Positions 5,774 to 22,814 of a stretch of 24,000 bases of DNA are shown one piece after another (the stretch's first letter is position 1; each line of letters opens with the position of its first letter). The stretch lies in the NCBI GenBank assembly GCA_963733055.1, contig CAVTBR010000003.1:564729-588728 (forward strand), written 5' to 3'. A model generated the notes under the pieces. It ran no database searches, had not been told where the DNA came from, and worked only from the letters and a program-made list of their open reading frames with translations. The position numbers were made by a program, and so were the translations under genes. Source of the stretch: Candidatus Bathyarchaeota archaeon (GTDB taxonomy: Archaea > Thermoproteota > Bathyarchaeia > 40CM-2-53-6).

Positions 5774-5929
5774 GCCGGACTCCTCTTGCGATTGTCAGTT
5801 AGAATTGGTTTCACAGAAAAACGTTCAGGTTCAAGAGTTCAGCGAAGTTACGTGTTACAATCAACCTTCAGAGAGTCCACTACTGAAAACTGAAACGGAA
5901 AGGAAAGGAGTTGGGGCTGGCTTTGGAGG

Positions 5930-7606
5930 TTACTTCGTCTTGATCATGCCGTTTTCGATGGTCAAGAGTTCGGAGCTGGGTGTGTTGAGTGCGCCGAGTG
6001 GGCATCCGCATCCTGCGGAGTGGCCTTTACCTTTTCGTAGAGTGCCCTTGTAGAGGCCTTGTTCAAGAGTTGTGTTATGGGCCTTCTCCCATTCCGCTAT
6101 TGGGATTCCGTACTTGGGCTGGATAGCGTCTCTGTACCATTCGGGGATTACGTTGAAGGCGCAGAATGGGATTATTCTCATGTCTGGGCTGAGGTAGTGG
6201 ATGTCGCATCGTCGTAGGCGTTCTTCGTCGTGGTTGTACTTGTCCATGAAGTGCATCATGCCGAGGAACATAGATTTGTGGTGGAATGCTCCCAGGGCGC
6301 TGTAGTCGTTCTTGACGAGTGCGTTGAAGAGTAGTTTACTCAACGCTAGGCCCTTGGGTTGTTTGCTTCTGTCGATGAATGTTCCCATCTTGGCCAGGAC
6401 TTTCGCTACGACTAGGTACTTGTTCTTGCCGGACTTCAGTTCGTCGGCTTTCTCCTCCAAATATTCCAGAAGTCCTTCTAAGTCGACGAAGGAGGCTATT
6501 GGGACGAGTTTGTCGCCGTCTTTGAAGACGTATGTACCTGCGCCGCACGCGAAGTGTATGGATAGTTCGTATCGGGGGCGTTTGGTTAGGGCTTCGACGA
6601 AGTGTGTGATTGGGACGCAGCTTGGTACTGGGAACCATGACTCTCTTCCGACCTCTCCGTTTGTTTGTTCCTCAATGCGTTCGATGCAGTCGGGGATTGT
6701 TATTCGGTACTTCTCTCTCTCTGACTTTGAGAGTCTGCCTGTGAGGGATACTGGTTGGAAGTTGACCGCGTGAATTGTATCCATGTTCCTTTGTCCGAAG
6801 CGGATTAGGCCGCCGAGTTCGTGGTCGTTAATGCTCTTGATGACGGTTGGGACTAGAACTACGCCCAAACCGGCCTTTCGGCATTGCTCAATCGCGATTG
6901 GGGCTTCCCAGTGATTCTTGGGGTTAGTTCTTGGTGTGACTCCGTCAAAACTCATGTAAACGGTGTTTACACCTGCGTTTCTAACTCTCAATGCCATCTC
7001 GGGGTCCTGTGCTAGGTTGATGGCGTTGCTGTTGAGCTGTATGTGCTCAACGCCTTCCTCTCTGCAGATCTTGATAATCTCAGGAAGGTCGTCCCGGAGG
7101 GTTGGTTCTCCACCGGTAATTTGAATTGCATTTCCAGGAACTGGCCTTTCCGCGCGTAGAACTTGGACCATTTCACGGATCTTCTCTTGGGTCGGCTCAT
7201 ACACGTAAGCGCCCTCGACGCCTTTCTTGGCGTAGAAGAAGCAGTACCAGCAGGTGAGGTCGCAGCGGTTCGTGATTACGAGGTTGGTTAAGCCTGAGTG
7301 GCTTAGGTGGCTTGTGCACAACCCGCAGTTGGTTGGGCAGGCACATTTCTCCAAGGGTACGTTCGGGTTCTCGATTCCCTTTCCGTTGTGCGAGAATTTG
7401 GCGAACTTGTAATACATGTCAGCGGAACCAAAGTAAAGTTCCTCAACCTCCCCGTGCTCTGGGCAGGTTTTGGCTATCCAAATCTTTCCTTCTCTTTCGT
7501 ATACGTTAGCGGGAAGGATTCGGTTGCAGTCGGGGCAGATGCTTCGAGTTTCTCGAATCTGTTTAGTCTCGGTCCTTTCAATCTGAATTGTTTCCATATT
7601 AACCAC
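5930..7606 (-). CDS. tes: radical SAM enzyme of the MJ0619 / tetraether lipid synthase (Tes, GDGT-MAS) family
   Basis: Radical-SAM motif 'NRCDLTCWYC' (CX3CX2C). Upstream of it is an auxiliary Cys cluster 'CACPTNCGLC' and an N-terminal ribbon 'CPDC...(20 aa)...CPEHG'. The length is 558 aa and the gene sits directly upstream of GGR on the same strand. Confidence 0.6.
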   Translation of the reverse strand: MVNMETIQIERTETKQIRETRSICPDCNRILPANVYEREGKIWIAKTCPEHGEVEELYFGSADMYYKFAKFSHNGKGIENPNVPLEKCACPTNCGLCTSHLSHSGLTNLVITNRCDLTCWYCFFYAKKGVEGAYVYEPTQEKIREMVQVLRAERPVPGNAIQITGGEPTLRDDLPEIIKICREEGVEHIQLNSNAINLAQDPEMALRVRNAGVNTVYMSFDGVTPRTNPKNHWEAPIAIEQCRKAGLGVVLVPTVIKSINDHELGGLIRFGQRNMDTIHAVNFQPVSLTGRLSKSEREKYRITIPDCIERIEEQTNGEVGRESWFPVPSCVPITHFVEALTKRPRYELSIHFACGAGTYVFKDGDKLVPIASFVDLEGLLEYLEEKADELKSGKNKYLVVAKVLAKMGTFIDRSKQPKGLALSKLLFNALVKNDYSALGAFHHKSMFLGMMHFMDKYNHDEERLRRCDIHYLSPDMRIIPFCAFNVIPEWYRDAIQPKYGIPIAEWEKAHNTTLEQGLYKGTLRKGKGHSAGCGCPLGALNTPSSELLTIENGMIKTK

Positions 7607-7642
7607 CGTCTAAGGTAAACTATCCTCGCCGAAGGTTTTCAT

Positions 7643-7652
7643 CTATATTAAC
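7643..7652 (-). promoter_or_regulatory. putative TATA box for the Tes-like gene (minus strand reads TTAATATAGA)
   Basis: An AT-rich TATA-like element is centred about 41 nt upstream of the ATG at 7606, in a divergent intergenic region. Confidence 0.35.
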
Positions 7653-7849
7653 GGTTTCCAAACCAAAGCTAAGGTGAAACGTGGGAACCGAAAACACCCC
7701 ATTTCCACCCTTTTCACCCCGCTACTAGGGGGATACGGAGTACCAACCGCTGGTCGGTTCCATCTGGATTCTTGAGTGCATCATACCATCGAGGGTCTCA
7801 AAAGCAATTAATTTGGTGTGTAGACTTGCGGTTTCCTGCTGGTTGACCC

Positions 7850-8332
7850 ATGTCCCAAGAGTCGAAGAGCCCGAGGGAGTCGTTGACGACTATGGTCAGG
7901 ATTATGATGCCTATGGACGCGAACAATTCTGGCAACGTCTTCGGTGGCGCAATATTACGACTAATCGATGAAGTGGGGTCCGTCGTAGCTCTCAAGCATG
8001 CACGCACAAACGTCGTGACCGCGTCCGTTGACAGAATGGACTTCTATTCCCCCGTCTACATCGGGGACATGCTCCGGCTTAACGCTTCCATCAACTTCGT
8101 TCACCGCACCTCGATGGAGGTAGGGGTTCGTGTAGAGGCTGAGAACCCTTTCACGGGCGAGGTCAGGCATACGGGCACCTCCTTCTTAACGTATGTCGGA
8201 CTTGATCAGAAACGAAAACCCACTATCGTCCCCGCGTTGAGATTGGAAACTGACGAGGACAAGAGGCGGTGGGCAGAAGGTCAGGAAAGGCGGAAGGCAA
8301 GGCTGAAAGAAATCGGCAGACACGAGGATTAA
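7850..8332 (+). CDS. acyl-CoA thioesterase (hotdog fold, YciA/acyl-CoA hydrolase type)
   Basis: 'MPMDANNSGNVFGGAILRLIDEVGSVVA...VTASVDRMDFYSPVYIGDMLRLNASI...TSMEVGVRVEAEN' matches the conserved core of acyl-CoA hydrolases. The C-terminal tail is basic. Confidence 0.85.
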   Translation: MSQESKSPRESLTTMVRIMMPMDANNSGNVFGGAILRLIDEVGSVVALKHARTNVVTASVDRMDFYSPVYIGDMLRLNASINFVHRTSMEVGVRVEAENPFTGEVRHTGTSFLTYVGLDQKRKPTIVPALRLETDEDKRRWAEGQERRKARLKEIGRHED

Positions 8333-9770: not shown

Positions 9771-10043
9771 CTAGTCGCCTGTGGTCATGAGTTCGCCTAC
9801 GATAGCAGTGTGAGTTCGTAAAACACCTTCGATCGTCTGTATCTGAGACCTAACGGTTCCAGTAAGGTTGTTAATGTCGGATCCTTCAACGAAGGCGATG
9901 ATATCAAACATGCCCGTCACAGGATGGGCGGTCTTTACTCCCTCAACTTTGGAAATTCTCTCAGTGATCGCCCGAGATTTTCCGGGTGCAATCTTGATGA
10001 GAACATAAGCTCCGATCTTCCGCTTGTCTGCCAACACGACCAC
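9771..10043 (-). CDS. stand-alone Lrp/AsnC ligand-binding (RAM) domain protein with no HTH
   Basis: 'AYVLIKIAPGKSRAITERISKVEGVKTAHPVTGMFDIIAFVEGSDINNL...IQTIEGVLRTHTAIV' follows the AsnC_trans_reg domain pattern. At 90 aa there is no room for a DNA-binding domain. Confidence 0.75.
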   Translation of the reverse strand: MVVLADKRKIGAYVLIKIAPGKSRAITERISKVEGVKTAHPVTGMFDIIAFVEGSDINNLTGTVRSQIQTIEGVLRTHTAIVGELMTTGD

Positions 10044-12274: not shown

Positions 12275-12973
12275 CTAAATGGACATGAGTGCTATCCCGA
12301 CTTCCACCCAACCCACTGCCGAATGAGTGGTCGCTGGAAAGTTTGTGGTTGAAGCGATGTTCGATATAGAGTACTGAGCGTGCGTAACTCCTATGCCAGA
12401 GTTTTCCTCGCTGGGGGCAAAACCCGTGCCGGCCGTGACGTTTCCCCCGGAACTATTCGTTGCTATGATTCCAAGTAGAAAGGCGCCGGGCTGAATGGCG
12501 ACTGGAGACGAAGTTGAGATTGACGTGCCAAGGCCGAAGCCAGTAGCCGTGGCCGCCCCTGTAGTTCTCACACCCGAAACCTCGTATACGTAGATACTCT
12601 CTGCCGGCGCGGCAGCGCTAAACGTCGCCGTGACTACGTCCGGGCCACTCGAAGAAGCGTTGGCGTAGAAAATGTAAACGGTCGGCGGAGGATCGTCATT
12701 TGACACTACGGCTTGAGTGAATGATAATCTCAGGGAATCTGTGAGGGAACTTAGCGTGAAAGAAGCATCCGCAATCACCACACCTACCACTATCACATCT
12801 CCACTAGCAACATTGTTTGTGAAGGAGACTGAGAGTCTACTTGAGCAACTGGAGCACTCAACATTGTTCTGTTGGACAAGTGCCGACGCGGCGTGAACAG
12901 GCAAGAGCCCAACGGTTAGCAGAAGCGTCGCTATGACGACACTCAGCATGAAAGGAATCCGGTTCCTAAGCAT
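12275..12973 (-). CDS. secreted hypothetical protein (232 aa), beta-rich, no membrane anchor
   Basis: Signal peptide 'MLRNRIPFMLSVVIATLLLTVGLLPVHA|AS'. The mature part is Ser/Thr/Gly/Ala/Val-rich with N-x-S/T sequons (NAS, NSS, NVT). It shares strand and neighbourhood with the other surface-protein genes. Confidence 0.65.
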   Translation of the reverse strand: MLRNRIPFMLSVVIATLLLTVGLLPVHAASALVQQNNVECSSCSSRLSVSFTNNVASGDVIVVGVVIADASFTLSSLTDSLRLSFTQAVVSNDDPPPTVYIFYANASSSGPDVVTATFSAAAPAESIYVYEVSGVRTTGAATATGFGLGTSISTSSPVAIQPGAFLLGIIATNSSGGNVTAGTGFAPSEENSGIGVTHAQYSISNIASTTNFPATTHSAVGWVEVGIALMSI

Positions 12974-13213
12974 GACCTACGCTTCTCGAACCGAAAAGGG
13001 TCTTGCGAACGCAAATTACTTTCTTGCCTCACGAGAATAAATCCCGTCTATCCCTCACACGTCAATAGAACATTCCTGCAACAAATATCTCTCCCTGCGT
13101 TCGAACAAATCATTGAATCTAGATTATGGCCCGTGTATACGATTAGGGCTAAACAAGGGGCCGATCCGACGATTGGGATGTTCTAGTGCTTTGGAGCGCG
13201 GTTAAGTGAATTT

Positions 13214-13768
13214 TCAGTTGGCAGTTCGGCGGCTCTTAGCGTACTTGACCATGGCTAGTGTGGCTAGGAGTGCGCCTAGTAGTGGGATGGCTAGGGTGGG
13301 GTATTCTGGGACGGGGGTCGGCCAGTTCACTGTGGCAGTTGCGTAACCCGGGTTGCCCCCGCTATTGTCGTAGACTACGACGGTGACCGTGTATGATTGT
13401 TGGAATGGAGGCTGGTAGGAATGGTACCGCACCTCGCTTACCACACTTTGGCAACAGTAGGGAACGCGAAGCATCGGGGTGCCGTCGCCGAATATCCAAT
13501 CCAACTCAGTTATCGTGAAACCTGACGAGGCCTTGGCGCTAACCCCGAATGCGTAAGCCTGAGGCGAACTGCTGTCCAGCTGAATGGAATTGAAGCTCAC
13601 CGTTGGTGGCCCGCCGGTCGTAACCAAATAGCTAGACGTGGTCGTCATAGTGAAGGATAACGTGGCGGACTGCTCCGGCGAGTTCATGGCGGAGGCCGCG
13701 GAGAGGCTTAGCATGCCTAGAACCGCTGCCAGCACCATGCACCCGACGACCAAGGAGCGTTTGCGCAA
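13214..13768 (-). CDS. membrane-anchored surface protein with one PKD-like domain
   Basis: Signal peptide 'MRKRSLVVGCMVLAAVLGMLSLSAASA'. PKD hallmark 'WIFGDGT...YTVTVVVYDNSGG...ATATVNW'. C-terminal 'PEYP-TLAIPLLGALLATLAMV-KYAKSRR' gives a motif, a TM helix and a basic tail. Confidence 0.75.
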   Translation of the reverse strand: MRKRSLVVGCMVLAAVLGMLSLSAASAMNSPEQSATLSFTMTTTSSYLVTTGGPPTVSFNSIQLDSSSPQAYAFGVSAKASSGFTITELDWIFGDGTPMLRVPYCCQSVVSEVRYHSYQPPFQQSYTVTVVVYDNSGGNPGYATATVNWPTPVPEYPTLAIPLLGALLATLAMVKYAKSRRTAN

Positions 13769-13968
13769 ATCGAATCTGAGGAAGTGCGGGAAACATTGAA
13801 GATAAACCTAACCAGGGCTGCACTCAAACATGTGTCATTTTCCAGTCGCTCACAAAAGAATAGTTAACAATGCGCTGTTTCGAGTCAACAATCGCCCTGC
13901 CTAGAAATCGTCGCTCGAAAGAAGTTTACAAGGAAACTTCAATATTCTGATTGAGTTCAGAAGGAGAC

Positions 13969-13990
13969 GGCAGGATGACGAAATCCTGCC
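13969..13990 (-). terminator. perfect 8-bp stem / 6-nt loop hairpin, 2 nt downstream of the stop of the 867-aa gene
   Basis: ggcaggat-gacgaa-atcctgcc. There is no adjacent long T-tract, so a terminator role is only plausible and an RNA-stability element is an alternative. Confidence 0.35.
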
Positions 13991-13992
13991 TG

Positions 13993-16596
13993 CTACCTCT
14001 TCCGTCGCCTAACTATCGCCAAAGCAGCCATCCCAACGATTGCGCCCACGATAATCGACTCCCACGGAAAGCCGGGGACTGCGGGCATAACTAATGGGGT
14101 TGAAACTGAACTAGTGCTCGAAGTGCTTGTCGTCGGAGTGCTCGTGACTGTCACAGTAGACGCGGCTGCGGTTGTCGACGCGGTTGAACTCGTCATGACT
14201 TCAGAGGTAGTCGACGTGCTGGACGATGTCGAGATTTCGCTTGACGAAGTAGTTGTCGCGGCTGTTGAACTTGCGCTCGAACTCGTCGAGTTTGTGGTAG
14301 TGGCTTGCTGTCCCACAACCGGCGGGTTTTGTGGGTCGAGGTGAATGATGCCCGATAGGGTTCCGCCAGTTACAGGTCGTCCAACTGCCCACCCATCTTC
14401 GGGGCCAGTCAGGTAGACGGAACGCAAAGACATGCCCGGCGTTACGCTTCCGGCCAGTATGGGCGGAACTAGGGGCGTGTAGACCCAAGCAACGCCATCC
14501 CAGTGAGCAAACACAACATTTCCAGGTGAAGACTGATCATCGCCGACGACCCATCCATCACCGTTTCCTGATCCTGTGCCGAAGGTATCAACAAAGACAG
14601 ATGTTAGATTAGCAGTGGCTATACCTGTAACCTGTCCGGTTCCACCGCTCCAAGTATTTCCTCCGTCGGTTGTTTGAACGATGGTGGATGAGGATCCGAC
14701 AATCCAGCCGTGAGTAGAATCTTTGAAGTAGACACCATTCAAATTGCTAGAGCCAACCTGTGGAATCGCATGTGCAGTCCAAACCGGGACACCGCCAGTT
14801 ATGGTCAGCACTAGAACGGTACCGGTGTTTCCGACCGCCCATCCAGCAGGTGTGCCAGAGGGGGCGCCTTGATTGTTGATGAAAACACCATTCAGATTGT
14901 TCAGTGTTGGCTGTGAAAATAGAGTCCAGCTACCGGATTGATGCCTCCAAATCTCACCGTGTAATCCAACTGCCCATCCATCTCCTCCAGTTCCTCCGCT
15001 CAACATGAAAACTGATCGCGGTTCACAAGGATTGCTGGCACCACATCCCGCAATCGGTTGACCGTTCCAGCTTTGGCCGTTCCACAACAAAGCCTCGGGT
15101 CCAGTGTGCGTACTATTACCGCCCATAGCCCATCCTTCCCCAGAGCTGAGCATGTAGATCGTCCAAATGTCGGGATGGATCGTCTGGCTGGGTGCGGCAT
15201 TCGCCCGGTGCCACTTGATACCATCCCAGTGGATCAGTGAACAACAATCATTACTTGCATTGTATAGCCCACCCGCCCAAGCATCGCTCGAGCCTAACTC
15301 CCAAACGGCGTTGAGTTGAGTACTGTCCAAAACGTTGGTGCTACCGCCCCAACACGGCTGGGGTACTGCGGAACCGCATCCTGAATTACCTGTTTGCAAG
15401 ATAACTCCGTTAGCACCCGATGCCCATCCATTACCGCTGCTTGGGAAGCTGGCGCTGAATAATCCAGTCCCCACATTTCCGTGGCCGTCTCCAACCGCAG
15501 TTTGCAACGGAGTTGTGAGGGTTAACCAGCTGTTGCTTCCTCCCAGTGTCGTTGAGTGAAGTATGGTGCCGTTAGAGCCTACGATCCATCCTTCGCTTGT
15601 ACTCACCAATTGAACGGAATACAAATCTCGGGATGTACCCGCAGGCGTCACTGGGCCCGCCCAGATACCTGTGGCGAAGTGCCAGACTTGTCCGCCGCGA
15701 CCAACAGCCCACGCATCGATCGGGTTTGTTTGATCAACAAAGATGCCAAGTAAACTGTTTGCTGCACCGCCAATTGAAGTGGCCGTCCAAGTGTTTCCTC
15801 CACTGAATAGCCTCGCCACGACCCCGCCCTCACCGACTGCGAATCCTTCTAGGTTCCCCGCTCCGTCTTGGAACATGTAGACACTGTTGTAACGCGTCGT
15901 AGGAACTCCGACCACCTTTTGTTCTATCCATCCACCGCTGGTCTTTGGATCCCCACTGAAAGCCCAAATTGACCCTTGATTTGTAGCATTAGTGCCGACG
16001 GCATACGTTAATCCCGAAACGAAAGCCGATCCGCTTGGGCATCCTGTTGAGTAGGCTGGAGAATGACAGACCATGAAGACTGAAGTTAGGTTCTTTGCGT
16101 CCGAAAGACCCGTGTCTTGCACCGTCAGTGCTGCCCCATCCCAGTAAAGCGCAATCCCTCCTGCTGAGCCGGAAGGATGAACTGAAGAATTGGAGTTTCC
16201 TACGATCCATCCGTCAGAGCCGTCACCATTTGGACTACAGAGTCCAACTCCCGGTGCACCGGAGTTCGTGCAGAAGTTTACGGAATTGTAAGTGGCATTA
16301 GGGAGCGGGGAAGCGATGATAGGCCATGAGAACCCGTCATAGTGAGCGAGAACAGGTTGCTGGGTGTTGCTGATGTTATCTCCGCCTACGGCCCAACCGT
16401 CTCCTGCTCCGATCGAGCCTGAGCCTCCATTTCGAACGTATATTCCTCGCAAAGATCCCTTTGGATCGGCGGTGTATTGGGTAGGGTTGATGTCCCGCCA
16501 TCGCCCGAAGGTTATTGCGGCTTGAATTGGGGCTGCGCTAAGAATCACCAACATGACTACGACGATCGAAGCTGTCCACAAGAGACGGTTCTTCAT
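13993..16596 (-). CDS. cell-surface protein with 14 Ycf48/BNR-like beta-propeller blades, a Ser/Thr-rich stalk and a PGF-CTERM archaeosortase signal
   Basis: Signal peptide 'MKNRLLWTASIVVVMLVILSAAPIQA'. There are 14 blade signatures (GDGWAVG, SDGWIVG, YAVG, EGFAVG, DAWAVG, EGWIVG, NGWASG, DAWAGG, EGWAMG, DGWAVG, AGWAVG, HGWIVG, DGWVVG, DGWAVG), and one carries a canonical Asp-box, 'TTDGGNTW'. A 76-aa S/T stalk follows. The C-terminus is 'PGFPWESIIVGAIVGMAALAIVRRRKR'. Confidence 0.85.
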   Translation of the reverse strand: MKNRLLWTASIVVVMLVILSAAPIQAAITFGRWRDINPTQYTADPKGSLRGIYVRNGGSGSIGAGDGWAVGGDNISNTQQPVLAHYDGFSWPIIASPLPNATYNSVNFCTNSGAPGVGLCSPNGDGSDGWIVGNSNSSVHPSGSAGGIALYWDGAALTVQDTGLSDAKNLTSVFMVCHSPAYSTGCPSGSAFVSGLTYAVGTNATNQGSIWAFSGDPKTSGGWIEQKVVGVPTTRYNSVYMFQDGAGNLEGFAVGEGGVVARLFSGGNTWTATSIGGAANSLLGIFVDQTNPIDAWAVGRGGQVWHFATGIWAGPVTPAGTSRDLYSVQLVSTSEGWIVGSNGTILHSTTLGGSNSWLTLTTPLQTAVGDGHGNVGTGLFSASFPSSGNGWASGANGVILQTGNSGCGSAVPQPCWGGSTNVLDSTQLNAVWELGSSDAWAGGLYNASNDCCSLIHWDGIKWHRANAAPSQTIHPDIWTIYMLSSGEGWAMGGNSTHTGPEALLWNGQSWNGQPIAGCGASNPCEPRSVFMLSGGTGGDGWAVGLHGEIWRHQSGSWTLFSQPTLNNLNGVFINNQGAPSGTPAGWAVGNTGTVLVLTITGGVPVWTAHAIPQVGSSNLNGVYFKDSTHGWIVGSSSTIVQTTDGGNTWSGGTGQVTGIATANLTSVFVDTFGTGSGNGDGWVVGDDQSSPGNVVFAHWDGVAWVYTPLVPPILAGSVTPGMSLRSVYLTGPEDGWAVGRPVTGGTLSGIIHLDPQNPPVVGQQATTTNSTSSSASSTAATTTSSSEISTSSSTSTTSEVMTSSTASTTAAASTVTVTSTPTTSTSSTSSVSTPLVMPAVPGFPWESIIVGAIVGMAALAIVRRRKR
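13996..14076 (-). other. PGF-CTERM sorting signal (PGF motif, TM helix, Arg-rich tail)
   Basis: Codons CCC-GGC-TTT (PGF) lie at 14076-14068 on the minus strand, followed by 'PWESIIVGAIVGMAALAIV' and 'RRRKR' before the stop. Confidence 0.8.
14077..14304 (-). repeat. low-complexity Ser/Thr/Ala-rich stalk-coding region (76 aa)
   Basis: 'ATTTNSTSSSASSTAATTTSSSEISTSSSTSTTSEVMTSSTASTTAAASTVTVTSTPTTSTSSTSSVSTPLVMPAV'. This bias creates the spurious Val/Glu/Asp-rich antisense ORF 14114..14344. Confidence 0.8.
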
Positions 16597-16628
16597 GCCT
16601 AATCGCTAATTCCTATTCCTTTCCGGTT

Positions 16629-16672
16629 CACATATAAGTGTTGTTTTGTGCAACACAAATACACTATATTGC
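16629..16672 (-). promoter_or_regulatory. promoter/operator region of the 867-aa gene: two TATA-like boxes embedded in nested inverted repeats
   Basis: The minus strand reads GCAATATAGTGT-ATTT-GTGTTG-CACAAAA-CAACAC-TTATATGTG. The proximal TATA is centred about 39 nt upstream of the ATG at 16596. GTGTTG/CAACAC forms a 6-bp palindrome (16638-43 / 16651-56), flanked by ATATAAGTGT and ACACTATAT. Confidence 0.4.
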
Positions 16673-16810
16673 TCATTTCTCCAGCTCCTTAAGGTAACGC
16701 CTCACAGCCTCACGAATGACGAACGACCGCGAGGGAACCTTGTCCTTGTCGATCAAGTCGTCCATCTTGTCGAGGAGCTGTATGGGGAGGGTTGCGGTGA
16801 TGTTTGCCAT
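16673..16810 (-). CDS. ribbon-helix-helix (CopG/Arc/MetJ-type) DNA-binding protein, 45 aa; absent from the ORF track because it is shorter than 60 aa
   Basis: My own translation of the minus strand gives 'MANITATLPIQLLDKMDDLIDKDKVPSRSFVIREAVRRYLKELEK*'. This is the textbook RHH pattern: N-terminal beta-strand 'ITATLP', helix 1 'LLDKMDDLI', then 'SRSxxIReAvrxYL'. The ATG is at 16810-16808 and the TGA at 16675-16673. Confidence 0.7.
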   Translation of the reverse strand: MANITATLPIQLLDKMDDLIDKDKVPSRSFVIREAVRRYLKELEK

Positions 16811-16845
16811 TCTGGACCTGCGGTTGGACAATGAGAGCTGCTCCG

Positions 16846-19668
16846 TCAACGTGTACGCCTCCGACGAAGGATCGCAAGCGTGCCTACACCAACAACGATT
16901 CCCGCTAAGATCGATTCAATCGGGAACCCGGGTATCAATCCTCCAGGAGTAACATTGAGGGTTAGTGTAAACACTTGGCCACCGCTCGTTGTGACCGTGA
17001 TTGTCTGTGTTGAAGTGACTCCATTCTTGCTGAGCGTAACTGTGTATGTTCCTGGCGGAACCGTGAAGGTAACCAGTCCTTGCGAATTCGTAACACCCTG
17101 CACTGGTGCTGGCAAACATGGCGTGAAAGCTGTGGGCGTAAGCACCACGTTAACGCCTGAAAGCGGGTTGCCTTGGTTGTCAACAACTTTGATGGTTAGG
17201 GTTACGTTGGGAGGACACACTGACGTAGTGGTCGACGATATCGTCGTAGTGAGAGCTGTGGTTTGAGTTGAGACCGTCGAGACGACGATCGAAGTTGATG
17301 TGGTGGAGAATATTCCGCCATACGTTGAAAATCTCAGAATTGTCGAAAGTGGGGTCTTGTAGCCGTACAGGCCAACAGGTCCTGCCTCTTTGAAGTAAGA
17401 GGCACTCACGAAGTCAGGACTTCCGCCCACGACCCAACCATTCGTCTCGCTCGTCATGTAGACTGAACTGAGAATCGGCGGGATCTCACCTAACAGTGCC
17501 GGTGATAGGGTTACGTGCTCCCAGGATACTCCATCCCAGTGAAAGATTGTTGCGACTAATTTGCCTGGGAACCCGACGGCCCATCCGTCGTTCGGGGCGT
17601 CAAGGAAAACTGACTTGAGAGTTGCACTTGTGTGTCCAAGAGATGTGATTCCGCCGGGGATTGTCGGAGTAGCCACCGGTTCCCATTTGGTTCCGTCCCA
17701 ATAGATTATGACCGGCCCAGCAGAAAATGAGCTGGCAGCTTGAATTCCTCCGACAGCCCAGCCAGATGTTGGAGTGAGCAGGAAAACTGATGTCAGGTTT
17801 GCGTCCAGGGACAGAGTGGGAGAACCACTCACAGTGACCAAATTCCAAGTTCCGACCCCTCCGCTAACCGTGTAGTGCAGAATCGTCGCATTGTCACCAA
17901 CCGCCCAGCCCTCATTTGCAGTAACCATGAAAACAGAATTCAATCCATGCACTGCAGCAGGGCTAGAAGGTGCCGGGAAGACCGCCCACGTTCCTACGCC
18001 CCCGGTAACCGTGTAATGCAAAATGATTCCTGTTGGATATGGGGAAGCGACTTGTTCTCCGACCGCCCAGCCCTCATTCGAACTAACCATGAAGATCGAT
18101 TTCAGAGAATACTGCCCTGGAGGCGGCGTAATCGTATTCCATGAACCTCCCGTGAAATGCAGGATAATAGGGCATGGAGCGACACTGCAACTTGCAGTTG
18201 GATGTGGTCCTCCGCCAACTGCCCAAACATCACCAGAGTTTACCATAAACACTGAATTCAGATTGTTCGTCGTTCCTATCGCAACGCCTTTCGTCCACGC
18301 GAACCCGTTCCAATGATAGATTGTCGGTTCGAACGGCGTTACGCCATCTGTAACCGACGAGTTGCCAACAGCCCAACCGTCATTGGGATTGATTGAACCG
18401 CCCACGATACTTGCATCGCAAGTTCGCAGTACAAGGCATGGTTCGCCAAACGAGATCGAAGTGAAGTTGTTGATTGTCGGACTAGTAACCGTCCCATAAT
18501 TCACGCCATCAAAGTGAACGATGACACCATCCGTTCCAACAACCCAACCGTCATTTGCTGAATTGAAGAAGCCTGACGCGAAGTTCAGCAATGATACAGG
18601 TGACGTTGGAACTAAGTTTGAGGGAAGGAGAGTCCAAGTCCCACCTGAGTAATGTAAAATCGACCCTTTAGCCCCAAACGCCCAGCCTTCAGTTGAACTA
18701 ACCATGAAAACCGAAAACAGATTATTCGACGTAGTTCCCGGGCTCACGGGGCCTGACCAAATCCCAGTTGAGTAATGAATTATGATTCCCCCATCGCCCA
18801 CCGCCCAGCCTTCCGTGGGTGAAATCATGTAGACCGATCTGAGAGACGTACAAGCAGGAGGAGTGATAGGGAGAGAAGCTGGACAGCTGTCTACTGGCGA
18901 GGTGAAAGTATTCCATACTCCACCAAAGTAGTGGAAGATAATTCCCCCCGCGCCAACAGCCCATCCCTCTGTAGAACTAACCATGAAAACTGAATAGATC
19001 CCGCACTTCGGTGCTGTGATAACCGCGGGGCAGGCAACTGGGGCTTGCGGCATGTTCCATCCTCCGCCGAGACCCGGGACACCGGTCCAATGCCAGAAGA
19101 CGCCCATACTTCCCGCTTGGTTCTGTCCTACAGCCCAAATGTCTGTACTGCTGACCATGAAAGCGGACCATAGCGGACCCGCGTTAGGTGCTGATAATCC
19201 AGCCAACTGACTCCGCCAAGTAATGCCGTCCCAATGAAGGGCAAGAGACACATTTTGTGAAAGTGGCGTACTGTTGTATCCGACGGCCCATCCATCAGTA
19301 CCCAGAGGCGTTATGGGATTGCCCGGCGGCCCGAAGGTGACCGAAGTCAAATTGTAAGCTGCTTGCTTGGCTGGAAAATCGGCAATCTTGGGAGCTGGGA
19401 CAAGGTTCCAGGTTGACCCATCGTAGTGAAATATCGCTGGTAAAGCGGTTGTGTCATTGGTTGTTGGTCTAGAATCTCCGACCGCCCAGCCGTTCGTGGC
19501 AGAGAGCATGTAGATCGAATTGAGTTGTGGGTTGGCTGGCGGGCTAATGTATGCGTCTGGGTTGATGTCGCGCCAGACTCCCATTTGGGCGGTTGCGGGA
19601 ACTGCGGAAACTGCTAGGGCGATTAGCGTAATGCCGATAATCATTGCACAGAGTCTTGTCTTTCTCAT
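16846..19668 (-). CDS. cell-surface protein with 14 Ycf48/BNR-like beta-propeller blades, a short S/T linker, a carboxypeptidase-regulatory-like (Cna-B-type) beta-sandwich and a PGF-CTERM signal
   Basis: The likely start is the ATG at 19668, giving signal peptide 'MRKTRLCAMIIGITLIALAVSAVPATA|QMGVWRDINP'. The track's start at 19722 would include the TATA-like region. There are 14 blades with the consensus 'L.SV[FY]MVS..EGWAVG..G.I[LI]H[YF].GG.W'. 'VTLTIKVVDNQGNPLSGVNVVL...TNSQGLVTFTVPPGTYTVTLSKNG' is a CarboxypepD_reg-like domain. The C-terminus is 'PGFPIESILAGIVVGVGTLAILRRRRTR'. Confidence 0.85.
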   Translation of the reverse strand: MRKTRLCAMIIGITLIALAVSAVPATAQMGVWRDINPDAYISPPANPQLNSIYMLSATNGWAVGDSRPTTNDTTALPAIFHYDGSTWNLVPAPKIADFPAKQAAYNLTSVTFGPPGNPITPLGTDGWAVGYNSTPLSQNVSLALHWDGITWRSQLAGLSAPNAGPLWSAFMVSSTDIWAVGQNQAGSMGVFWHWTGVPGLGGGWNMPQAPVACPAVITAPKCGIYSVFMVSSTEGWAVGAGGIIFHYFGGVWNTFTSPVDSCPASLPITPPACTSLRSVYMISPTEGWAVGDGGIIIHYSTGIWSGPVSPGTTSNNLFSVFMVSSTEGWAFGAKGSILHYSGGTWTLLPSNLVPTSPVSLLNFASGFFNSANDGWVVGTDGVIVHFDGVNYGTVTSPTINNFTSISFGEPCLVLRTCDASIVGGSINPNDGWAVGNSSVTDGVTPFEPTIYHWNGFAWTKGVAIGTTNNLNSVFMVNSGDVWAVGGGPHPTASCSVAPCPIILHFTGGSWNTITPPPGQYSLKSIFMVSSNEGWAVGEQVASPYPTGIILHYTVTGGVGTWAVFPAPSSPAAVHGLNSVFMVTANEGWAVGDNATILHYTVSGGVGTWNLVTVSGSPTLSLDANLTSVFLLTPTSGWAVGGIQAASSFSAGPVIIYWDGTKWEPVATPTIPGGITSLGHTSATLKSVFLDAPNDGWAVGFPGKLVATIFHWDGVSWEHVTLSPALLGEIPPILSSVYMTSETNGWVVGGSPDFVSASYFKEAGPVGLYGYKTPLSTILRFSTYGGIFSTTSTSIVVSTVSTQTTALTTTISSTTTSVCPPNVTLTIKVVDNQGNPLSGVNVVLTPTAFTPCLPAPVQGVTNSQGLVTFTVPPGTYTVTLSKNGVTSTQTITVTTSGGQVFTLTLNVTPGGLIPGFPIESILAGIVVGVGTLAILRRRRTR
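16849..16932 (-). other. PGF-CTERM sorting signal
   Basis: Codons for P-G-F-P lie at 16932-16921 on the minus strand, followed by a 19-residue hydrophobic helix and 'RRRRTR' before the stop. Confidence 0.8.
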
Positions 19669-19709
19669 CGGGAACCAACTTGACAGTGATGAGAGTCGCC
19701 TGTTCTGCA

Positions 19710-19725
19710 CAATTAATAACATTAA
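19710..19725 (-). promoter_or_regulatory. putative TATA region for the 958/941-aa surface-protein gene (minus strand reads CTTAATGTTATTAATT)
   Basis: This is the only strongly AT-rich element upstream. It is centred about 47 nt upstream of the ATG at 19668 and lies inside the longer ORF call, which argues for the shorter start. Confidence 0.35.
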
Positions 19726-19889
19726 GTAAGCATTACATGTTAAACCGTAGCATGTCTTTGGCCTAATTCTTGTCGCAAAGATGATTTCACAATGCAGAGT
19801 AACCCTCGGACCCCTCCCGCTCTCTCAGAGGGCAACTTTAGGCCTAGCTGGACGGCACCCTCCGGTTTCGACTGGAGATTTGAGGCGCC

Positions 19890-20183
19890 TTGATAATCTC
19901 GCTCAAGCTTTACGGAGTCTTCAGATCAGCCGCTGGAGCGGAGAGGATTGAGCTGGACATTCCTGTAAATGAACCAACAGTCCGAGCAGCCATATCCGAC
20001 ATAGCCAGTAGATCAAACCTTAGCCAGCTGAAACAACTCGTATTCGACGGAGAAACACATGACCCGCGCCCTAACGCCTTGATTATGGTTTCAGGCCGTG
20101 AGATCAGCACGCTGAACGGTTTAGATACGAAGCTGAAGGTTAGCGACGAATTAGCTTTGCTTCCGATCGCACACGGAGGATAA
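19890..20183 (+). CDS. MoaD/ThiS/SAMP-type ubiquitin-like beta-grasp protein ending in Gly-Gly
   Basis: 97 aa. 'ALIMVSGREIS...LDTKLKVSDELALLPIAHGG*' fits the MoaD family pattern (...vNg....l...L.dgDe.a..PpvsGG), and the stop codon follows the diglycine directly. The start is TTG. Confidence 0.7.
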   Translation: MIISLKLYGVFRSAAGAERIELDIPVNEPTVRAAISDIASRSNLSQLKQLVFDGETHDPRPNALIMVSGREISTLNGLDTKLKVSDELALLPIAHGG

Positions 20184-21065
20184 AAGCCCATTCATACTTC
20201 CAGAGCGATACCCAGTCATATCCAAGGCCACGTGAGCATACCCTAAAACGCGAAGAGCCTCCGAAATCTTATCGAGAAGTTGCTCGTCGAAGAACAAGTT
20301 TCTCTCGCTCTTTCCAACTTCGATCCTAGCTATGCTTCCGTGGTCTCGCACCCGAAGTTCCTTCACACCCGTTAGCGACCGAATCGTGGTCTCCGCCCGT
20401 TCGATACGCAACAACCTCTCGGGAGTAATCACTTCACCATAGGCAACTCTCGAGGACAAACACGGCATTGAGGGCTTGTCGTGATTAGGCAACCCAAGAG
20501 ATTTGGCTAACTCCCTAACCTCGTCCTTCATCATTCCCGCGTCTGAGAGTGGTCTCCGAATTCCCCTCTCAGATAGCGCTGCGGCTCCTGGCCTGTGGCC
20601 GATCAGATCCTCCGCATTGGTACCGTCCACGATCGTGTAATCTCCGAGTTCTCTCGCCAAGTCCACAAGTTTCTCCCCTAACTCCTTCTTGCAGAAGTAG
20701 CAACGGTTCACAGGATTGGCTACGTAGTTTGAGTCCTGCAGTTCATCCGTCTTGACGACGATGTGCTTGATTCCGATACGACCGGCGAGCTCCTTCGCTT
20801 CCCGAAGCTCAGATGACGGAAGGCTTGGCGAATCTGCCGTGACTGCGATTGCTCCATCTTCGAGCGCCATCTTCGCGAGAAGTGCCATGAGACTACTATC
20901 TACGCCTCCGGAAAAAGCAACCATTACCTTTCGGAAACTCGTCAGTTCGTTTAGGATTCGCGTGGCTTTCGCGCAAAGCTCCGGTGATAGCCCGAGGTCT
21001 TGGAAGGTCGGTAATCCACTCGGGCTCTCTTCTGTTAACATTTTATGAGACCTCTCGCAGCTCAT
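20151..21065 (-). CDS. larE: LarE, ATP-dependent sulfur transferase for nickel-pincer nucleotide (NPN) cofactor synthesis (PP-loop ATPase)
   Basis: PP-loop 'VMVAFSGGVDSSLMA', 'NRCYFCKKELG', 'VDGTNAEDL', 'PSMPCLSSRVAYGE' (the Cys-containing loop) and 'GYRSGSMN' near the C-terminus. Met9 (MLTEES...) is a possible alternative start. Confidence 0.85.
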   Translation of the reverse strand: MSCERSHKMLTEESPSGLPTFQDLGLSPELCAKATRILNELTSFRKVMVAFSGGVDSSLMALLAKMALEDGAIAVTADSPSLPSSELREAKELAGRIGIKHIVVKTDELQDSNYVANPVNRCYFCKKELGEKLVDLARELGDYTIVDGTNAEDLIGHRPGAAALSERGIRRPLSDAGMMKDEVRELAKSLGLPNHDKPSMPCLSSRVAYGEVITPERLLRIERAETTIRSLTGVKELRVRDHGSIARIEVGKSERNLFFDEQLLDKISEALRVLGYAHVALDMTGYRSGSMNGLLSSVCDRKQS

Positions 21066-21098
21066 GATACTTAGGCGTTTCCTAGTTGGCGAAACCTG

Positions 21099-21875
21099 TT
21101 GCGTGAAACTCTCGAAAAGCTTGCACAGGGCAAGATCTCCGTTGATGAAGCAGAGAAAGCGTTGAAGATGAACATTGTTGAAAATGTGGGCAATGTGGCG
21201 AAGCTTGATGTCGGTAGGGAAAAGAGACGCAGCGTTCCAGAAATAGTATTCGCGGAAGGAAAAAGTAAGGAAGATCTCGACGCTATTTGCAAGACGATGC
21301 TCGAGAAGACCGGGCGCATAATAGTCACCCGGCTAGACAATCAACAAATCGACGAATTACAAACCAAGTTCCACGCTTACGATACTCAGGTGTCCCCGCA
21401 CGCCAAGTCACTGGTCGTTAGAAGGAAGGAATATCATGGCCCGAAAACCGGGGGACGGATTGGTGTCCTGACGGCGGGCACTGTGGATTTGGCAGTGGCT
21501 GAGGAGGCCGTGATGATCGCGCAGGAGATGGGATGTGAAACATTCTTGGAGGCTGATGCCGGTGTGGCAGGAATTCATCGGTTAGTGGAACCCTTGAAGA
21601 GGATGTTGGCTAATGATGTGGATTGCCTAATTGTTGTGGCCGGTCGAGAAGGTGCGCTTCCCACAGTCGTCGCGGGGTTAGTAGATCTACCACTGATCGC
21701 CGTCCCGGCCTCATCCGGTTACGGCTATGGAGGCAAGGGGGAAGCAGCGTTGATGGCCATGTTGCAGGCTTGTTCTCTAGGCTTGGCAGTAGTCAATATT
21801 GACTCGGGCGTTGCTGCGGGTGTTGTTGCGGCACAGGTAGCGAATCGGGTTGCTCGTGCGAGGGCGTCTCATTAA
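21099..21875 (+). CDS. larB: LarB, pyridinium-3,5-biscarboxylic acid mononucleotide synthase (PurE-like NaAD carboxylase/hydrolase)
   Basis: 'DVGREKRRSVPEIVFAEGKSKEDL...GRIIVTRL' is the LarB N-terminal region. It is followed by a PurE-like domain, 'IGVLTAGTVDLAVAEEA...LIVVAGREGALPTVVAGLVDLPLIAVPASSGYG'. The start is TTG and the gene is divergent from larE across a 33-nt gap. Confidence 0.9.
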   Translation: MRETLEKLAQGKISVDEAEKALKMNIVENVGNVAKLDVGREKRRSVPEIVFAEGKSKEDLDAICKTMLEKTGRIIVTRLDNQQIDELQTKFHAYDTQVSPHAKSLVVRRKEYHGPKTGGRIGVLTAGTVDLAVAEEAVMIAQEMGCETFLEADAGVAGIHRLVEPLKRMLANDVDCLIVVAGREGALPTVVAGLVDLPLIAVPASSGYGYGGKGEAALMAMLQACSLGLAVVNIDSGVAAGVVAAQVANRVARARASH

Positions 21876-22814
21876 TCAGGATACGCTTACGGTTTTCAAG
21901 TGGCCGCACGCCGCTTTTACAACATCAACAGACTTCATGAAAGCGGTCCTCTCATCGTTATTCAATTTCAGTTCAATCACGCGCTCAACGCCTCGCGCAC
22001 CAAGAACCGCGGGAACGTCCACGTAGACATCCTTCAAGCCATACTCGCCGTTTAGATGTGCCGTGAGGCATAGAACCATCTTCTTGTCTTTGATGATGCT
22101 CTCAACCATTCTCGTTATTCCGTGTGCTGGAGCGAAAATCGTTGCTCCTTTGAGCGCTATCACTTCGGCCGCGATCTTCCTTGTCCGATCGATAGCCTCG
22201 TTTACTTGAGACTGAGAAAGCAATTCAGTGATGGGTGCACCGTTCACTGTTGAGAATCTGGGAAGGGGAACCATCGAGTCGCCGTGTTCGCCGATCACAA
22301 CGGCATGGATTGAGCTCGTTGATACTTTCAGAGCCTTGGCGATGAAGTACTTGAACCGCATCGTATCAAGCATCCCACTCTGTCCGAAGACTCTCAAGGG
22401 TTCGAACCCGGTAACCTTCCACGCCAAGAAAGTCATAACGTCAAGCGGGTTGGTAACCATCAACACAAGTGTCTTCGGAGCATACTCCCGAATCTTCTCG
22501 CAAATATCTCGAATTATGGTTTCATTCTTCTCCTGCAAATCGAGGCGCGTCATGCCTGGCTTCCTTCCCAGCCCCCCGATCACGACAACAAGATCCGAAC
22601 CCGCGATGTCTTTGTAATCGTTCGATCCGACTATATCGAGATCCGTTCCCTGCTCTGCCACCATTTGCCCCAAGTCAAGAGCCTCGCCTTGAGGTAGTCC
22701 CTGAATGATGTCGACGAGCCTAAGATCGCCAAGCTCTCTTTGAGCAACCTGAAGCGCCACCGCGCTTCCTAATTTACCCGTACCAATAATCGAGATTAGT
22801 TTCCGCGCAGTCAA
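21876..22814 (-). CDS. mdh: malate dehydrogenase, LDH-like type (NAD-dependent)
   Basis: 'ISIIGTGKLGSAVA' (NAD fold), 'GLGRKPGMTRLDL' with Arg at the substrate-discriminating position (Arg in MDH, Gln in LDH), and 'VIGEHGDSMVP' (catalytic His). The start is TTG. Confidence 0.9.
   Translation of the reverse strand: MTARKLISIIGTGKLGSAVALQVAQRELGDLRLVDIIQGLPQGEALDLGQMVAEQGTDLDIVGSNDYKDIAGSDLVVVIGGLGRKPGMTRLDLQEKNETIIRDICEKIREYAPKTLVLMVTNPLDVMTFLAWKVTGFEPLRVFGQSGMLDTMRFKYFIAKALKVSTSSIHAVVIGEHGDSMVPLPRFSTVNGAPITELLSQSQVNEAIDRTRKIAAEVIALKGATIFAPAHGITRMVESIIKDKKMVLCLTAHLNGEYGLKDVYVDVPAVLGARGVERVIELKLNNDERTAFMKSVDVVKAACGHLKTVSVS

Follow-up and report, generated by a model that had tools for sequence, protein, structure and literature searches.

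What kind of cell-surface protein is encoded by pB and pA, two neighbouring genes in the genome of a Candidatus Bathyarchaeota archaeon, and how is it held there and controlled? Both genes lie on the minus strand of a 24,000-nucleotide stretch (assembly GCA_963733055.1, contig CAVTBR010000003.1, positions 564,729 to 588,728 of the forward strand), which is referred to below as the window. Bathyarchaeia are among the most abundant archaea of sediments and peat, and to our knowledge there is almost no experimental knowledge of their cell surface. In the predicted structures of both proteins the ectodomain is a double seven-bladed, Ycf48-like propeller with a degenerate Asp-box, and sequence models class their C-terminal tails as Loki-CTERM, not PGF-CTERM. 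They are probably glycosylated cell-surface proteins of peat or soil Bathyarchaeia, and we see about an even chance that the following combined reading is correct: pA and pB are stalked proteins of the envelope with a non-catalytic role in binding or scaffolding, anchored in a sortase-like way and encoded in a cluster controlled by a small ribbon-helix-helix (RHH) protein.

The pA and pB genes and their ectodomains

All coordinates are window positions, and amino acids (aa) of pB are counted from M19 of a 958-aa version that starts at an upstream ATG. The genes and their N-terminal and ectodomain features are as follows.

16846..19668, minus strand: pB, a 940-aa double-propeller surface protein (stop codon 16846-16848)
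13993..16596, minus strand: pA, an 867-aa paralogous double-propeller surface protein (open reading frame and translation)
19585..19668, minus strand: signal peptide of pB, about aa 1-28, MRKTRLCAMIIGITLIALAVSAVPATA followed by Q, with a basic n-region, a hydrophobic core and an A-T-A site
17326..19584, minus strand: ectodomain of pB, aa 29-781, 14 blades making two seven-bladed propellers, WRDINP strand included
14332..16509, minus strand: ectodomain of pA, aa 30-755, 14 blades, from GW-core motifs and strand pattern
14650-14673, minus strand: canonical Asp-box TTDGGNTW of pA, aa 642-649

The longer version of pB would begin at an ATG at 19722 (958 aa), and orthologs begin with MRK, favouring the 940-aa form. 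pA and pB align over their full length, with 31% of residues identical (E 8e-66), and each is retained as a distinct ortholog in other genomes; they are therefore old paralogs rather than an assembly duplication, in agreement with a first-pass annotation of this DNA made from its letters alone. The same annotation had proposed a Sec signal peptide and a shared mature start, WRDINP, and the sequences read accordingly: a basic n-region, a hydrophobic h-region and an A-x-A-type site precede WRDINP in both proteins, and the WRDINP residues are near-invariant in an alignment of 61 family members. In the AlphaFold2 model of pB, the N-terminus forms a helix (residues 2-21) followed by a segment with a low predicted local distance difference test score (pLDDT). 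Five close-set pairs of Cys are found in each mature protein, which supports an extracellular location. Charged residues are extremely scarce in both proteins (K 0.9-1.5%, R 1.4-2.1%, D 2.8-3.6%, E 1.5%), and G, S, T and W are abundant. A mobile or viral origin of the pair was rejected, as tblastn gave no match to phages and a single weak match, to an actinomycete sequence, among plasmids.

The GW-core motif of the repeats occurs 14 times in pA and 12 times in pB, which has two additional variants of it (DIWAVG and DVWAVG). AlphaFold2 returned propellers for both proteins, with about 14 four-stranded blades in pB (by DSSP; pLDDT 83, predicted TM-score (pTM) 0.77) and the same number in pA (pLDDT 78, pTM 0.76). 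Motif count and strand pattern thus bear out the 14 blades counted at first pass, enough for two seven-bladed propellers, and the canonical Asp-box noted then in one blade is indeed present in pA. The likeness of the blades to Ycf48, which had also been proposed, is seen in both sequence and fold. The Pfam family PSII_BNR (PF14870; gathering threshold (GA) 27) matches pA with 37.5 bits, best at aa 617-704, and pB with 28.7 bits, each over a partial stretch of about 80-100 residues. Foldseek places one propeller on Ycf48 with a TM-score to the target (TMt) of 0.68-0.70 and 17% identity (TMt 0.70 for pB). When a profile of the 61 family members was compared with PDB chains, Ycf48 was the sole sequence match (E ~1e-6). 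Neither protein is a Ycf48 equivalog: both fall about tenfold short of the 326-bit cutoff of PRK13684 (pA 33.9 bits, pB 30.8 bits).

Full-length matches in the PDB were to tandem (7+7) propellers. For pB these were the BT4663 sensor domain (E 3e-16), PorZ, GH74 and Aip1, and for pA the top match was 1nr0 (Aip1/UNC-78; two seven-bladed beta-propeller domains, E 2e-13); the structures matched over their full length by Foldseek include 1nr0, 4a2m, 6p2n and 5m11. Alignments to the extracellular 7+7 propellers run over 750-970 columns at 10-14% identity. Such matches would suit a carbohydrate-capturing surface receptor or a GH74-like enzyme, the cleft between the two propellers binding or cleaving plant or microbial glycans in peat. 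The leading structures are glycan-handling propellers (the BT4663 heparin sensor, PorZ and the GH74 xyloglucanases, the last at E ~1e-11 to 1e-12), the family is expanded and diversified, and some paralogs adjoin genes for CBM96, GH130/GH43-like and GH5 cellulase proteins. However, the cytoplasmic double propellers of WD40 proteins rank equally high in Foldseek, and the matches therefore mirror fold rather than function; the identity in the structural alignments is also just that of the 10-14% given above, and the pB/pA locus itself lies amid housekeeping genes. The invariant and near-invariant columns of the family consist of G, W, P, H and D, which recur at the same position of each repeat. 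Outside the repeats, conservation of acidic residues is limited to D34 (in WRDINP) and E447, and pA lacks E447. As no conserved carboxylate pair is apparent outside the repeat positions, and the profile of 61 members matched no GH74 chain in the PDB at E <= 0.01, a non-enzymatic role is favoured. The reading of a carbohydrate-capturing receptor or enzyme is considered unlikely. A GH74-like enzyme was rejected as the principal explanation, with no sequence match and, by alignment, no conserved catalytic Asp pair.

Stalks and C-terminal tails

Between the propellers and the C-terminus, both proteins continue with a region rich in Ser and Thr (S/T) and then a short anchor-like tail.

17209..17319, minus strand: S/T-rich linker of pB, aa 784-820, with >=60% S+T in 30-aa windows
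14083..14319, minus strand: S/T-rich stalk of pA, aa 760-838, about 80 residues, from composition
16957..17202, minus strand: CarboxypepD_reg (PF13620) or Ig-like beta-sandwich domain of pB, aa ~823-904
16849..16935, minus strand: Loki-CTERM tail of pB (NF033507), IPGFPIES, transmembrane helix and RRRRTR, with a helix at 917-938 in the AlphaFold2 model
13996..14079, minus strand: Loki-CTERM tail of pA (NF033507), VPGFPWES, transmembrane helix and RRRKR, with a helix at 845-866 in the AlphaFold2 model

The Ser/Thr-rich stalk that had been described for both proteins is evident from composition and from the disorder of the models, in which pLDDT is below 50 for aa 784-816 of pB and 26-36 across aa 759-841 of pA. 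A CarboxypepD_reg domain had been assigned to the larger protein only, and this also holds: PF13620 matches pB with 34.7 bits (GA 32.3; aa 841-922 in the 958-aa numbering), where the model has seven strands at a pLDDT of about 90, and gives no match to pA. The abundance of N-x-S/T sequons, on the other hand, did not survive a comparison with shuffled sequences. Each protein has 10, and its composition alone predicts 10.5 +/- 2.9 (pA) or 9.4 +/- 2.7 (pB), so that an enrichment of N-glycosylation sites was rejected.

The tails, VPGFPWESIIVGAIVGMAALAIVRRRKR and IPGFPIESILAGIVVGVGTLAILRRRRTR, are at the extreme C-termini and consist of Pro-Gly-Phe, a hydrophobic helix and a basic cluster. In these letters the first-pass annotation had recognised a tripartite PGF-CTERM signal. 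The three parts are present as described, and the family is a different one. The PGF-CTERM model TIGR04126 (cutoff 24.5) gave 6.2 bits with the pA tail, no match with the pB tail at E <= 10, and none with the whole of either protein at E <= 1. The Loki-CTERM model NF033507 (cutoff 19.9 bits) was matched instead, over positions 1-26 of 27, with 30.5 bits for the pA tail alone and 34.8 bits for that of pB (22.5 and 26.8 bits, respectively, when whole proteins were used). The tail consensus of the family is GIPGFPxESIxAGIxxGxxxLxLLRRRR, in which four conserved residues (P-x-E-S) stand between PGF and the helix.

Tails of the Loki-CTERM type are found in 95 of the 120 closest homologs of pB. The remaining 25 lack PGF and have a transmembrane helix followed by a cytoplasmic motif, RRRPRxPVVxYPxQRRP; these are termed class-2 and include two paralogs in L009 (9992-12595 and 18042-20594) and others in L022, L024 and L025, where L001-L028 are labels of the related loci and contigs used for comparison. 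Since about one-fifth of the close homologs carry this helix and motif, part of the family is permanently membrane-spanning. Genes for rhomboid proteases are found some 2 kb upstream of class-2 paralogs at two loci, L009 (~7423-8100, plus strand; Pfam Rhomboid, 90 bits) and L025 (~7167-7810, plus strand; absent from the gene calls of that contig). Between its two propeller paralogs, L009 also has an open reading frame (ORF) of 1,596 aa (13086-17876, plus strand) that consists almost wholly of Thr/Ser-rich repeats.

A PGFP-x-E...RRR tail is also carried by unrelated proteins of 132-142 aa that have only a signal peptide and an S/T stretch (four loci, a small sample), and the Loki-CTERM tail is therefore a modular signal. 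The genes for these stalk-only proteins, which have about 70 Ser/Thr residues, are situated between propeller genes (L004, 15756-16151; L011, 15571-15966; L013, 15859-16254; L014, 15806-16231), and they hint at a mucin-like brush of glycoproteins covering the cell.

The conserved cluster, its RHH gene and promoter elements

The other members of the cluster and the sequence elements around it are listed here.

16673..16810, minus strand: RHH gene, 45-aa ribbon-helix-helix protein (CopG family), unannotated, between pB and pA
13214..13768, minus strand: PKD184, a 184-aa secreted PKD-like protein with a PEYP-transmembrane-basic (KSRR) C-terminus, third conserved member of the cluster
12275..12973, minus strand: sec232, a 232-aa secreted protein with no family match
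19709..19745, minus strand: promoter/operator box 2, upstream of pB, GTTTAACATGTAATGCTTACTTAATGTTATTAATTGT
19766..19784, minus strand: promoter box 1, TCATCTTTGCGACAAGAAT, some 20 nt further upstream than box 2
16632..16656, minus strand: inverted repeat GTGTTG-N7-CAACAC with TTATAT directly after it, in the interval from the RHH stop to the pA start

The RHH gene occupies the 249-nt interval between pB and pA, and starts 35 nt past the pB stop codon. An alternative start, a TTG at 16849, overlaps that stop codon (TTGA), an arrangement that suggests translational coupling. The predicted protein matches RHH_1 (PF01402) with 27 bits (GA 20.5) over positions 2-38 of 39, and is 71-100% identical in 12 of 12 syntenic loci. 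Its homologs form 210 clusters and carry precomputed PF01402 assignments; the lengths of their contigs coincide repeatedly with those of contigs bearing pB homologs. Three look-ups from distant members (L026-L028) all led back to the same pB-RHH-pA-PKD cluster, and at two unrelated loci an RHH gene directly follows a paralogous propeller gene (58% identity after one of the paralogs).

The order of genes is MDH-LarB-LarE-SAMP-like, pB-RHH-pA-PKD protein, and TBP-signal peptidase-PadR, and from MDH to TBP it is fixed in 12 genome loci and in the three contigs reached via RHH, i.e., in at least 15 Bathyarchaeia contigs. Across the syntenic loci, pB is 61-93% identical, a level like that of the enzymes on its flank. 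Identity at the pA position varies much more widely (31-89%), and some genomes have two copies there together with a stalk-only protein. PKD184 comes after pA in 11 of the syntenic loci (44-90% identity) and in L026-L028, and is a possible partner or adaptor of pA and pB. It scores 23.8 bits against PKD_4, under the GA of 27, and the assignment of its tail to PEF-CTERM was rejected (11.9 bits, cutoff 23). The gene for sec232 is found downstream of the cluster in the closest relatives only (L001 and L010, 80-84% identity).

Box 2 is near-invariant across 16 upstream regions, including those of paralogs at unrelated loci, and the core of box 1 (CAT..T..TG.TAAGAA) is kept in alignments of both orthologous and paralogous loci. 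In the L025 paralog, box 2 (~9953-9989) is a perfect 12-bp inverted repeat, TTTGACATGTAA-N13-TTACATGTCAAA, with an AT-rich spacer of 13 bp. This palindromic form is as expected of an operator overlapping a promoter; judged from the sequence, box 2 is likely to be an operator, and possibly one bound by the RHH protein. The GTGTTG-N7-CAACAC repeat upstream of pA is conserved in the closer relatives L001 and L010, with related sequences in L003 and L007, and could be a terminator hairpin for pB-RHH, an operator and/or, with its TTATAT, the TATA box of pA.

The tie between propeller and RHH genes could also be explained if the proteins were transmembrane sensors that relay an external cue to the RHH regulator, either through the transmembrane helix and tail or by intramembrane proteolysis. 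Three unrelated loci show the two types of gene coupled, their stop and start codons overlapping or nearly so; class-2 paralogs have a conserved, proline-rich cytoplasmic motif and, in L009 and L025, the upstream rhomboid genes described above; and the fold resembles the sensor domain of BT4663. Yet pA and pB stop 4-6 residues past the basic cluster, which leaves no cytoplasmic domain for signalling, and a relay would be impossible if a sortase removed the tail. Genes on the opposite strand intervene between the rhomboid genes and the paralogs, as in L025, and an RHH gene within an operon is most simply an autoregulator. Signal relay is thus considered very improbable.

Homologs of pB form more than 3,600 clusters at 90% identity, the best being 93% identical and from a Bathyarchaeia metagenome-assembled genome (MAG). 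The closest relatives of every gene in the window are from Candidatus Bathyarchaeia MAGs of peat (SPRUCE) and Danish soils (Microflora Danica). The propeller family has several copies per genome: at least four occur on one 1.36-Mb contig, and tandem copies are found elsewhere. Genomes bearing the cluster include JBEKPE01 (SPRUCE 457), CAWIHH01 (with a 1.36-Mb contig) and CAVSBL01 (with a 2.36-Mb contig). Two of the related contigs, L002 (DATIYC010000192.1) and L011 (DATKOK010000064.1), are filed as bacterial MAGs (Candidatus Acidiferrales and Methylomirabilota). Both carry the full Bathyarchaeia gene order, and L011 has an archaeal TBP, so they are almost certainly mis-binned archaeal contigs. 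In Microflora Danica assemblies, some propeller genes are in frame-shifted pieces (L010, 13059-15651; L013, 10083-12881; L014, 10001-12655); their orthologs are intact, and these look like assembly indels rather than pseudogenes.

Elsewhere in the window, the genes at 19890-22814, next to the cluster, encode a lactate/malate dehydrogenase, a protein with a LarB-like AIR carboxylase domain, LarE (TIGR00268, 295 bits) and a small SAMP/MoaD-like protein (42 bits, under the cutoff). Together they resemble a gene set for the nickel-pincer cofactor; neither LarA nor LarC is present in the window. At 4316-7606 (minus strand), a flavoprotein of the geranylgeranyl-reductase family is beside a 558-aa radical SAM protein with an HMPTM-type zinc ribbon, and the two possibly form a pair for lipid modification. 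Searches of the whole window gave neither a tRNA nor an Rfam family.

Proposed role, the surface-layer alternative and known systems

That pA and pB are envelope proteins, as had been suggested at first pass, is borne out by their architecture, i.e., Sec-exported, stalked and C-terminally anchored. In the reading of a stalked, non-catalytic binder or scaffold, export by Sec and cleavage of the signal peptide would leave the tail holding the protein in the membrane, and an archaeosortase-type enzyme would probably then swap the tail for a lipid anchor, by analogy with PGF-CTERM and ArtA. Sec export followed by C-terminal processing is the general logic of PGF-CTERM proteins (PMC6098224). The S/T linker, presumably O-glycosylated, would lift the propeller pair an estimated ~10-25 nm off the membrane (the 80-residue linker of pA spanning at most ~25 nm when extended), and the propellers would serve as a non-catalytic platform for binding or scaffolding, in contact with other envelope proteins or with extracellular glycans. 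The RHH protein, presumably co-transcribed with pB, would bind the promoter element and set the expression of the cluster and of those paralogs that bear the element.

Several points weigh against this scheme. Cleavage and lipidation of the tail are proposed purely by analogy, and the tail may simply stay as a transmembrane anchor; the RRRPRxPVVxYPxQRRP motif of class-2 members is typical of permanent type-I membrane proteins. No archaeosortase or exosortase homolog was seen among the ORFs with at least four hydrophobic helices in ~420 kb of related loci (some 20 kb around each hit), where the plausible ORFs with multiple transmembrane helices were ABC-2 permease, rhomboid, DedA and EamA-like proteins, none of them a member of the exosortase family. 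We know of no experimental demonstration of a processing enzyme for the Loki-CTERM signal. No paper was found that uses the term Loki-CTERM, and literature on archaeosortases together with Bathyarchaeota, Asgard or Thermoproteota was limited to general reviews and unrelated work. What points to the RHH protein as the binder of box 2 is co-occurrence, and box 2 is also present upstream of an L009 paralog that has no adjacent RHH gene. The sequons are no more frequent than chance. Codon usage carries no signal, as an effective number of codons (ENC) of 55-58 is like that of the neighbouring genes, and codon bias was for this reason rejected as a proxy for expression.

A related question is whether pB and pA, perhaps with PKD184 as a membrane adaptor, could self-assemble through side-on propeller contacts into a surface layer (S-layer) or outer sheath. 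There is a precedent in Dehalococcoides mccartyi, whose S-layer protein (SLP) DET1407 (Q3Z6N3; BNR/Asp-box) was identified experimentally. It is reported to form a p6 lattice, with contacts made by a pair of beta-propellers at its N-terminus (preprint 10.1101/2024.05.28.596244), and ranks sixth in abundance in one proteome (PMC6646388 supplement). The layout of a glycosylated stalk followed by a C-terminal sorting signal is that of the haloarchaeal S-layer glycoprotein (SLG; PMC6098224), and a large and a small gene side by side recall the SLP pairs of Thermoproteota (preprint 10.1101/2024.05.28.596244, table). The gene set is core-like, with a fixed locus and a strongly conserved promoter, and conservation is even over all 14 blades. 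In the cultured Bathyarchaeum tardum, an S-layer is accompanied by a further outer layer of unknown composition (PMC10477458). Against this, the S-layers of Bathyarchaeia, including B. tardum, are predicted to be p4 lattices of Ig-like-domain proteins, for example A0A3R7EJK5 and WGM90076.1 (preprint 10.1101/2024.05.28.596244). pA and pB showed no homology to these when compared by description, being propellers and not Ig-like arrays. The family is also multi-copy (the four or more copies on one contig, and the tandem pairs elsewhere), every copy has its own anchor, the conservation of pB is unusually high for an SLP, and codon usage gives no hint of exceptional expression. Self-assembly into a lattice or sheath is regarded as unlikely. 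Its fullest form, in which pB, pA and the PKD protein build a wall layer (an S-layer lattice or the extra outer sheath seen on cultured Bathyarchaeum) in soil and peat Bathyarchaeia, with Loki-CTERM/archaeosortase-like sorting and RHH control, is distinctly unlikely. If true, it would give Archaea their first surface layer built of beta-propellers, a counterpart of the double-propeller S-layer of Dehalococcoides, with an archaeosortase-like sorting pathway outside Euryarchaeota and a dedicated RHH regulator with its own operator.

Returning to the stalked binder or scaffold, neither its domain types nor its type of sorting signal is new. Its novelty lies in a combination: a sortase-type signal in Thermoproteota that has a tandem Ycf48-like propeller for its cargo, a family of more than 3,600 clusters, and a fixed cluster of four genes that includes a small regulator and has a promoter/operator-like element, palindromic in some copies. 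The earlier statement that double Ycf48-like propellers had not been described as archaeosortase cargo stands for the literature searched, in which no paper was found on the family or on a link between Bathyarchaeia and photosystem II (PSII) stability. It does not stand for annotation pipelines, since members already appear at NCBI and JGI under the names 'Loki-CTERM sorting domain-containing protein' and 'photosystem II stability/assembly factor-like'.

Thousands of sequences, a core locus, a regulator and an operator-like element make the propeller family a well-defined candidate for a major component of the envelope, and one that can be tested; the propeller-RHH-operator module offers a simple way into gene regulation of an uncultured lineage. 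C-terminal sortase-type signals would extend to Thermoproteota, where the reviews consulted describe no archaeosortases, ArtA being described only in a subset of Euryarchaeota (PMC6098224). If the proteins are merely another set of stalked surface binders, the result is a useful annotation and no surprise; a demonstration of lattice formation or of archaeosortase processing would sharply raise its importance.

Among known systems, Ycf48/HCF136 are the sole family detectable by sequence, and share the seven blades with a degenerate Asp-box. pA and pB differ in having tandem propellers, in being exported and membrane-anchored, and in belonging to a non-photosynthetic host, an archaeon as judged by the TBP, TrmB and geranylgeranyl reductase genes of the window. 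Together with the failed equivalog match, these differences rule out PSII assembly factors. The BT4663 sensor domain, PorZ and the GH74 xyloglucanases have the same tandem of seven-bladed extracytoplasmic propellers and bind glycans, whereas pA and pB are without the histidine-kinase/response-regulator module, the type IX secretion system (T9SS) C-terminal domain and the conserved catalytic Asp pair, respectively.

At the C-terminus, the resemblance to PGF-CTERM/ArtA substrates extends to the literal P-G-F, the hydrophobic helix, the basic residues and a Thr/Ser-rich stretch just upstream. The differences are the failure to match TIGR04126, the P-x-E-S spacer, and propellers in place of the Ig-like domains of SLG. 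The match to Loki-CTERM proteins covers the last 27 residues of pA and pB, with the same layout of motif, helix and basic cluster, and one ortholog already bears this name at NCBI, although that model is named for Lokiarchaeum and pA and pB are from Bathyarchaeia (Thermoproteota). The D. mccartyi SLP differs in being bacterial, in its anchoring and C-terminal domains, and in that a lattice is established or predicted for it and not for pA and pB. By its description in the preprint, it shares with them two propellers, a similar size (1001 aa) and an archaeal-type envelope without a wall.

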